Shown here piece by piece: positions 30,970 to 31,749 of a stretch of 64,000 bases of DNA. Numbering within the stretch: position 1 is the stretch's first letter; every line of letters begins with the position of its first letter. Source of the stretch: Escherichia phage LF82-4; sequence record PV660448; one strand, given 5' to 3'. The position numbers were made by a program, and so were the translations under genes. The notes under the pieces were generated by a model, which was not told where the DNA came from, made no database searches, and saw nothing but the letters and a program-made list of their open reading frames with translations.

Positions 30970-31749
30970 ATGGCAGTAACAGGACCGTGGGTAGGATCGT
31001 CTGCAGTAGTTAATACAGGACAAAATTGGATGGGTGGTGCCGCGCAGAGATTGAGAATGGGAATTCCGTTTTGGATGAGTAATATGATAGGTCGATCTGT
31101 TGAAGTAATTCACACACTTGGAGCGGACCATAACTTCAATGGTCAATGGTTCCGAGATAGATGTTTTGAGGCAGGTAGTGCACCTATAGTGTTTAATATC
31201 ACTGGAGATTTAGTATCATATTCTAGAGATGTTCCTTTATTCTTCATGTACGGAGATACACCTAATGAATATGTTCAATTGAATATACACGGCGTAACGA
31301 TGTATGGTCGCGGCGGGAATGGTTGGGCTGCTGGAGCGATTGGAGCGTCTGACGGTGGTGTATGTATCCAAAATGATATAGGTGGACGTCTACGAATTAA
31401 TAACGGGGGAGCTATTGCTGGTGGCGGCGGTGGCGGCGGTGGATATTCACAAGCCAACAACTGGGCGGGAAAATATGTTTGTGGTGGCGGTGGCGGTCGT
31501 CCATTCGGCTTAGGCGGAAATAATGGTGCTCGATGGCCTGGCGGTAATGCTAGTTTGACGTCTCCGGGTGCTGGCGGTAATACTGGTACAGGGTATTATG
31601 CAGGTGGAGGTGGTGAAGTTGGTCAGCCAGGACAATATGCTAATCCAGGTGCTGGTTATTCAACACCTCCGACAAATCCTGGTGCTGCTGTAGCAGGATC
31701 AGCTCCAACATGGCAAAACGTTGGAGCAATATATGGTCCAAGAGTATAA
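30970..31749 (+). CDS. 38: receptor-recognising adhesin gp38 (T2-type, glycine-rich motifs)
   Basis: conserved N-terminus [21 protein letters not shown]...; poly-Gly motifs flanking variable segments; ATG at 30970 with GGAGG RBS (track start at 30958 is TTG). Confidence 0.85.

Follow-up and report, generated by a model that had tools for sequence, protein, structure and literature searches.

Gene 38 of Escherichia phage LF82-4 is placed by its sequence among the genes for T2/S16-type gp38 tail-fibre adhesins, where its product is a textbook case of the PP01/AR1 (O157 OmpC) subgroup, and it is itself a recombinant of two parental types that meet within 5 nt at the 3′ edge of a run of eight glycine codons. 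We are highly confident in the account as a whole, that of a T2/S16-type tip adhesin, encoded by a mosaic gene, that would dock onto gp37 and bind O157-type OmpC; docking, gp37 cleavage and receptor are taken over from the literature, and direct observation covers the family membership, the near-identity of the receptor-binding domain to that of PP01, the gene context, the purifying selection and the mosaic origin. The window referred to below is the whole stretch of DNA analysed, 64,000 nucleotides (sequence record PV660448). The gene, its ribosome-binding site and its two domains are as follows.

30960–30964, plus strand: Shine-Dalgarno sequence GGAGG, 5 nt 5′ of the gene 38 ATG (read from the sequence).
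30970–31749, plus strand: gene 38, T2-type receptor-recognising adhesin, 259 aa plus stop (Pfam GP38 and Gp38_N; PDB 9V85 and 6F45_D).
30970–31089, plus strand: N-terminal gp37-attachment domain, aa 1–40, with W7, W20 and W35 (Pfam Gp38_N matches aa 1–40).
31090–31746, plus strand: receptor-binding domain, aa 41–259, a beta-helix plus polyglycine-II sandwich (218/219 residues of 9V85).

The reading frame runs uninterrupted for 259 codons from the ATG at 30970 to the TAA at 31747–31749. This ATG was taken as the start because the homologues all begin with MAV.GPW; a longer version from a TTG at 30958 was rejected, since the homologues do not use it. An antisense frame at 31275–31460 (minus strand, 61 aa, containing PPPPPPPP) is the reverse complement of the glycine tracts and was discarded as a gene, and a search for structured RNA and tRNA in the window found none.

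Both Pfam models of the adhesin family match the translated product, GP38 (PF05268) with E = 4.9e-72 and 242.7 bits and Gp38_N (PF21721) with E = 1.3e-21 and 76.7 bits, each against a cut-off of 25. Residues 41–259 align with PDB 9V85, the sfGFP-fused receptor-binding domain of PP01 gp38, with E = 7e-143 and identity at 218 of 219 positions, and the gp38 of phage S16 (PDB 6F45_D) matches over the full length (E = 3e-52). The sole mismatch to 9V85 is at position 257, outside the receptor loops, where the window has proline and PP01 serine; proline is also found there in BECP11 and SF. The T2-type adhesin proposed in the initial annotation is thus borne out by both models and by the crystallised domain. 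Values of dN/dS were 0.097 against PP01, 0.036 against EC121, 0.018 against BECP11 and 0.135 against SF, and the differences are nearly all synonymous, so that the gene is under strong purifying selection.

We aligned nine adhesins, those of the window, PP01, G4507, RB69, T2, T6, Ox2, M1 and S16. The three tryptophans W7, W20 and W35 are invariant across all of them, which together with the Gp38_N match upholds the conserved gp37-attachment domain that had been claimed for the N-terminus; in S16, the three gp38 tryptophans dock the adhesin on the gp37 trimer (PMC6851490). Also invariant are GRGG (residues 113–116), G152–157, G172–176 with the following RP, and G212, G214 and G215, and a C-terminal AV.G..P.W motif is kept. 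Variable segments lie between these motifs, just as had been described from the sequence of this gene.

The stretch covering amino acids 4–19 (nt 30970–31030) occurs in discrete variants whose distribution is independent of the rest of the gene. One of these, 17 letters long, is found in the window, EC121 and G4507; a second, EGPWVGWSARVQTGDPW, in SF, e11/2, Sf23 and RB69; and a third, AGPWIGTSALAQTGDHW, in PP01. The variants may reflect matching to different gp37 tips.

The closest protein match to the LF82-4 gp38, in a search that gave 891 records, is that of BECP11 (99.2%), and the closest DNA matches to its gene are those of EC121, PE37, HY01, AR1 and PP01 (94–96%). The gp38 proteins of PP01, AR1, BECP11 and EC121 are likewise 259 aa long, have the same loops A–E (defined below) and share the predicted receptor. 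That of PP01 is the same throughout the receptor-binding domain except for P257S and differs at 8 positions within amino acids 4–19; BECP11 differs from LF82-4 by T4A and N236S only, and EC121 by V46I, N236S and P257S. Their DNA is nonetheless just 94–96% identical, nearly all of the change being synonymous, and they have a Tequatrovirus backbone whereas that of LF82-4 is Mosigvirus. The S16 gp38 (PDB 6F45; Dunne et al. 2018) shares the three-domain architecture, the three tryptophans and a Gly8 tract at residues 151–158, and is carried by a gp37 whose tip and chaperone domain are the same as in LF82-4, but this adhesin is only ∼50% identical, has other loops and binds Salmonella OmpC.

The gp38 proteins of T2, T6, Ox2 and M1 have the N-terminus, the glycine motifs and AV.G..P.W in common with LF82-4, but are 49–67% identical overall, with loop DNA at 21–49% and other receptors; with RB69 included, the loop DNA identities span 21–58%. 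T2, T6, Ox2 and M1 are the classical adhesins for OmpF/FadL, Tsx and OmpA. The comparison with adhesins of known specificity that had been proposed as a check on the initial annotation puts the window gp38 with PP01/AR1 (O157-type OmpC) and not with T2, T6, Ox2 or M1.

The structure of the PP01 receptor-binding domain was solved by Terasaki et al. 2026 (PMC12892980), with five loops at residues 119–124 (A), 161–170 (B), 184–189 (C), 204–209 (D) and 225–231 (E). With limits taken from that work, each of the corresponding segments in the window is identical to PP01.

31324–31341, plus strand: loop A, W119–I124, identical to PP01.
31450–31479, plus strand: loop B, Q161–V170, identical to PP01.
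31519–31536, plus strand: loop C, N184–W189, identical to PP01.
31579–31596, plus strand: loop D, N204–Y209, identical to PP01.
31642–31662, plus strand: loop E, N225–S231, identical to PP01.

PP01 cannot do without Y159, Y209, A228 or the conformation around Y230, and Y159, Q161, K168 and Y169, assigned to the loop B region, are needed for infection. Cross-links joined G208 with loop 5 of OmpC and Y230 with loop 7; A228 and Y230 of loop E enter the cleft between these two loops, and A228D abolished infection. Binding depends on GVIN, an insertion that O157-type OmpC has in its loop 7, the K-12 protein being left unbound, and loop B may also contact LPS (PMC12892980). All of these functional residues (Y159, Q161, K168, Y169, G208, Y209, A228 and Y230) are present in the window gp38. 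Because loops A–E and the key residues are those of PP01, and the loops of the other adhesins have diverged, the best-supported prediction, made from sequence identity, is that LF82-4 gp38 binds O157-type OmpC by the PP01 mechanism.

An adhesin directed at something else, such as a different porin, an OmpC of another allele or just LPS, appears improbable. Single loop substitutions can retarget gp38 adhesins (the Ox2 work and Pet-CM3-4), loop B of PP01 possibly touches LPS as well, and P257 in place of the PP01 serine is one sequence difference within the domain; against this, position 257 lies outside the loops, PP01 has the same five loops and the same residue at every position found important by mutation, and gp38s that are close relatives share their receptor (PMC12032242).

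Binding to O157-type OmpC would proceed along the following lines, modelled on published systems. The gp37 trimer would fold and its C-terminal intramolecular chaperone (aa ∼991–1101) would be cleaved off; one monomeric gp38 would then cap the fibre tip, its N-terminal domain docking with the three tryptophans in three gp37 pockets. The glycine-rich motifs would fold as a rigid polyglycine-II sandwich displaying the five variable loops, and loop E, its position set by loops B and D, would insert into the cleft that extracellular loops 5 and 7 form in OmpC of the O157 type, which has the GVIN insertion in loop 7, while K168 and Y169 of loop B may touch LPS sugars too. In that case LF82-4 should attach to E. 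coli cells that have the O157-type allele of OmpC, and K-12 OmpC should not serve it as a receptor. LPS/O-antigen and factors inside the cell are further determinants of host range. The fit of this gp38 to the mosaic gp37 of LF82-4 is assumed; its amino acids 4–19 differ from those of PP01, and PP01 gp38 is incompatible with T2 gp37 (PMC12892980).

A nucleotide alignment of nine close gp38 genes revealed where the two parental types meet.

31444–31448, plus strand: crossover interval TATTC, G4507-type to the left and SF/PP01-type to the right (informative sites).

Positions 30801–31448 are the same as in Tequatrovirus G4507 except for one synonymous site, 31425, the match being perfect for 624 nt up to 31424; the part from 31228 to 31448 matches e11/2 at 100% as well. 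Starting at 31444 and continuing past 32000, the sequence is that of Mosigvirus SF except at one site, 31629. G4507 and SF differ at 72 sites, which divide accordingly, with 35 of 36 following G4507 on the left and 35 of 36 following SF on the right (Fisher p = 5.9e-18), and they place the break between 31443 and 31449. Counted in codons, it falls after the third base of codon 158, with which the Gly8 tract ends, and before the third base of codon 160. Gene 38 is a recombinant at the level of DNA: its 5′ 60% is G4507-type, as are the final 138 nt of gene 37, and the 3′ 40% of gene 38, with loops B–E, is SF/PP01-type.

The right-hand parental type is represented by SF (MH359124), which belongs to the same backbone genus as LF82-4, encodes an identical receptor-binding domain and has the same DNA from 31444 through gene t and further on except for the one site. 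Its gp38 differs in having an RB69/e11-2-type N-terminus (E4, W10, R13, Q15, D18, P19), and its gene in having PP01-type synonymous sites at 31329–31443. The SF GenBank record (MH359124) leaves its intact gp38 gene (5972–6751) without a CDS annotation, and has in its place, on the minus strand, a CDS named ‘tail fiber protein’ at locus 6658–6843. On the other side, G4507, e11/2 and Sf23 carry a different allele 3′ of the Gly8 tract, with S199A, A228N (in loop E), I254V and P257S, and a loop D region, TGQ-YWA, that is one residue shorter; the exchanged right-hand part brings PP01-type loops D and E into the LF82-4 gene. Since A228 is replaced in the G4507-type allele, and A228D abolished infection by PP01, the fine specificity of that allele may differ.

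An engineered chimera of T2 residues 1–157 and PP01 residues 158–259 is functional and depends on OmpC(O157) (PMC12892980). By analogy with this working chimera, which is joined at the same place, the natural junction corresponds to an experimentally validated module boundary, residue 158. We tentatively interpret the gene, with rather less than even confidence, as the outcome of a recent natural exchange between a Tequatrovirus-type gene and a Mosigvirus-carried allele, with the crossover confined to the 5 nt directly 3′ of the (GGY)8 tract and falling at the boundary of the functional chimera.

The junction might instead be a product of assembly, joining two co-occurring phages that had never recombined; in favour of this, the exact protein occurs outside this record on one other contig only (Logan SRR33571401), which is 100% identical over 6780 nt and is perhaps from the same sample and so not independent. 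We nevertheless consider such an artefact very unlikely, because with the available parents the switch would have to occur in a shared stretch of just 5 identical nt, far under any assembler k-mer; moreover, the flanks run seamlessly into the mosaic gene 37 and the backbone, and the reading frame is intact. A natural recombinant is the reading followed here.

The surroundings of gene 38 are those of the tail-fibre cluster in an RB69-like phage.

26934–26941, plus strand: T4-type late promoter TATAAATA, 5′ of gene 36.
26968–27624: gp36.
27633–30938, plus strand: gene 37, distal long-tail-fibre subunit, 1101 aa, which carries gp38; mosaic (Pfam Peptidase_S74 and gp37_trimer).
30603–30935, plus strand: gp37 C-terminal intramolecular chaperone, aa 991–1101 (Peptidase_S74 at aa 991–1050; aligns with the C-terminus of S16 gp37).
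30944–30957, plus strand: GGGGC-UUCG-GCCCC tetraloop hairpin after the stop of gene 37 and before the Shine-Dalgarno sequence of gene 38 (dG −14.1 kcal/mol in a 46-nt context).
31780–32439, plus strand: gene t, holin, where the Mosigvirus backbone resumes (100% to RB69 and SF).

The gene order 36-37-38-t is the same as in PP01, RB69 and T2. A promoter box scan found no T4 late-promoter box directly before gene 38, and TATAAATA would probably start a common 36-37-38 transcript. The fold z-score of the intergenic hairpin is just −1.3 (46-nt context), and G4507 has a putative terminator annotated at the corresponding site. The holin gene contains a perfect inverted repeat of 11 bp, CTCTGGAAATA-TTCT-TATTTCCAGAG, at 31857–31882, where a terminator scan flags both strands. 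Upstream of gene 36, gp35 (25784–26908), the proximal hinge connector, matches the Pfam family ILEI (PF15711) at residues 58–131 (E = 6.9e-7, 30.1 bits, cut-off 27); ILEI denotes the interleukin-like EMT inducer, or FAM3, fold.

Across the window, positions 1–24000 are 99.6–99.7% identical to the LF82-x Mosigvirus phages with ∼4% of the query uncovered, which implies an insertion, deletion or replaced segment of ∼1 kb; positions 38000–62000 are ∼97.5% identical to LF82-41 and SHSML-52-1; and 25000–27800 and the DNA from 31780 onwards are 98–100% identical to RB69 and SF. Gene 38 is 92–100% identical to the PP01 group, and its identity to RB69 falls to 53–63% after ∼31250. The LF82 phages, the closest relatives of the backbone, have a different gp38, ∼75% identical over amino acids 1–166, and SF is the only Mosigvirus among those compared that has the same receptor-binding domain. 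In these comparisons gene 38 appears as a swapped adhesin in an RB69-like Mosigvirus backbone.

Gene 37 is itself a patchwork in which the closest phage changes every few hundred nucleotides: BECP11 at 27900–28300, RB69 at 28300–28500, PP01 at 28700–29000, EC121 at 29000–29300 and SF at 30000–30400, with a segment at 29800–30000 that is 53–61% identical to five comparators and ∼90% to CEV1/LF82 phages. Its tip matches that of S16 gp37 (6F45_A, E = 3.9e-48), and by analogy with T2 gp37 the chaperone region is predicted to be cleaved, near R989/S990, before gp38 docks. Within that region, amino acids 1054–1056 (30792–30799) read GDQDSEAL as against GDPDGEAL in 7 of 7 comparators, and positions 30750–30799, just left of the start of G4507 identity at 30801, hold 7 nt differences from every comparator.

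Gene 38 occupies the position that T4 gene 38 has, with gene 37 on one side and gene t on the other, and old annotations, RB69's among them, label such genes ‘assembly catalyst’, but a T4-type gp38, the assembly chaperone absent from the virion that the initial annotation had named as the contrary outcome, has virtually no chance of being correct, as it is ruled out by the two adhesin Pfam matches, by near-identity to the 9V85 domain and by a BLASTP search in which the sequence-unrelated, 183-aa T4 protein gave no alignment (E = 17).

Glycine accounts for 62 of the 259 residues of the adhesin, and for 33% of residues 113–259. Three tracts of at least four consecutive glycines are present.

31420–31443, plus strand: Gly8 tract, aa 151–158, (GGY)7-GGA (read from the sequence; TRF).
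31483–31497, plus strand: Gly5 tract, aa 172–176, GGT GGC GGT GGC GGT, in the invariant GGGGGRP.G motif.
31603–31614, plus strand: Gly4 tract, aa 212–215, GGT GGA GGT GGT, in the conserved G.GG.VG motif.

The Gly8 tract, with codons GGT GGC GGC GGT GGC GGC GGT GGA, corresponds to polyglycine-II helix 3 of S16 (151-GGGGGGGG-158), and TRF reports it as a repeat of period 9 with 2.6 copies and 100% identity. Repeats in the DNA of the glycine tracts had been noted around 31419–31500, and the 23-nt string quoted for them, GGTGGCGGCGGTGGCGGCGGTGG, is present base for base at 31420–31442, within this tract. Their description as near-perfect GGY repeats holds for the tracts, in which 15 of 17 glycine codons are GGY, and fails for the gene as a whole, where GGY makes up 41 and GGA 18 of 62. 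Nor is the preference peculiar to the gene in the window; it is family-wide, with GGY at 92% in tracts of at least four glycines and 70% elsewhere among 21 gp38 genes, whose relatedness inflates the p-value. Non-terminal tract codons in gp38 genes are GGY in 95% of cases, and terminal ones are GGA in 19%. Avoidance of GGAGG and of poly-G runs would be the simpler explanation of this bias.

The DNA of invariant tract glycines is no better conserved than its surroundings: in 20 diverse genes, third-position identity was 0.48 at these glycines, equal to that at other glycines (0.48) and below that at other four-fold sites (0.55). We accordingly rejected selection on the tract DNA as a recombination signal. 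What does take the tracts beyond chance is that they encode invariant protein motifs. Even in very divergent gp38 genes the tract DNA is 67–83% identical, as against 21–58% for the loops, so that the tracts set a minimum level of DNA similarity: G is fixed at two positions of each codon, and the third is nearly always T or C.

The idea of recombination at glycine motifs is already published, as set out in Trojet et al. 2011 (PMC3157838), which cites Tetart et al. 1998, and in PMC12032242. Selected crossovers inside glycine-rich motifs have been produced by experiment. The junction in gene 38 fits this model and lends it modest support. A random breakpoint would have a 9–11% chance of falling within 3–6 nt of a tract of at least four glycines, and the identical stretch at the tract, 23 nt, is not the longest between the parental classes, others being 26–39 nt. 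Elsewhere in the clade, junctions are found at 31025–31105 in G4507, in the N-terminal domain, near 31125 in bov9_1, and at 31314–31329 in SF, whose own switch lies beside GRGGNG, which led us to reject the notion that crossovers occur solely at glycine tracts. The initial annotation's view of the repeats as recombination substrates therefore draws modest support from one natural crossover, mapped to the 3′ end of the Gly8 tract; the tract DNA, which is conserved no better than other sites, and the junctions outside the tracts weaken it. An IMG/VR scan yielded 13 relatives, too few for a population-level test of breakpoints.

The family, the fold, the receptor and the recombination model have all been published previously; new here are the placement of such an adhesin in an RB69-like backbone, the sharp natural crossover where the Gly8 tract ends, and the absence of extra DNA conservation in the tracts. 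The last of these is a caution for the exchange model, for which gene 38 of LF82-4 otherwise supplies one cleanly resolved natural example of a specificity module being exchanged at or near a glycine-rich motif. The sequence predicts an RB69-like phage that would target E. coli with O157-type OmpC, which could be useful for phage typing or biocontrol. If the pattern proves general in gp38 genes, the edges of glycine tracts would be preferred, function-preserving points of exchange by virtue of microhomology alone.
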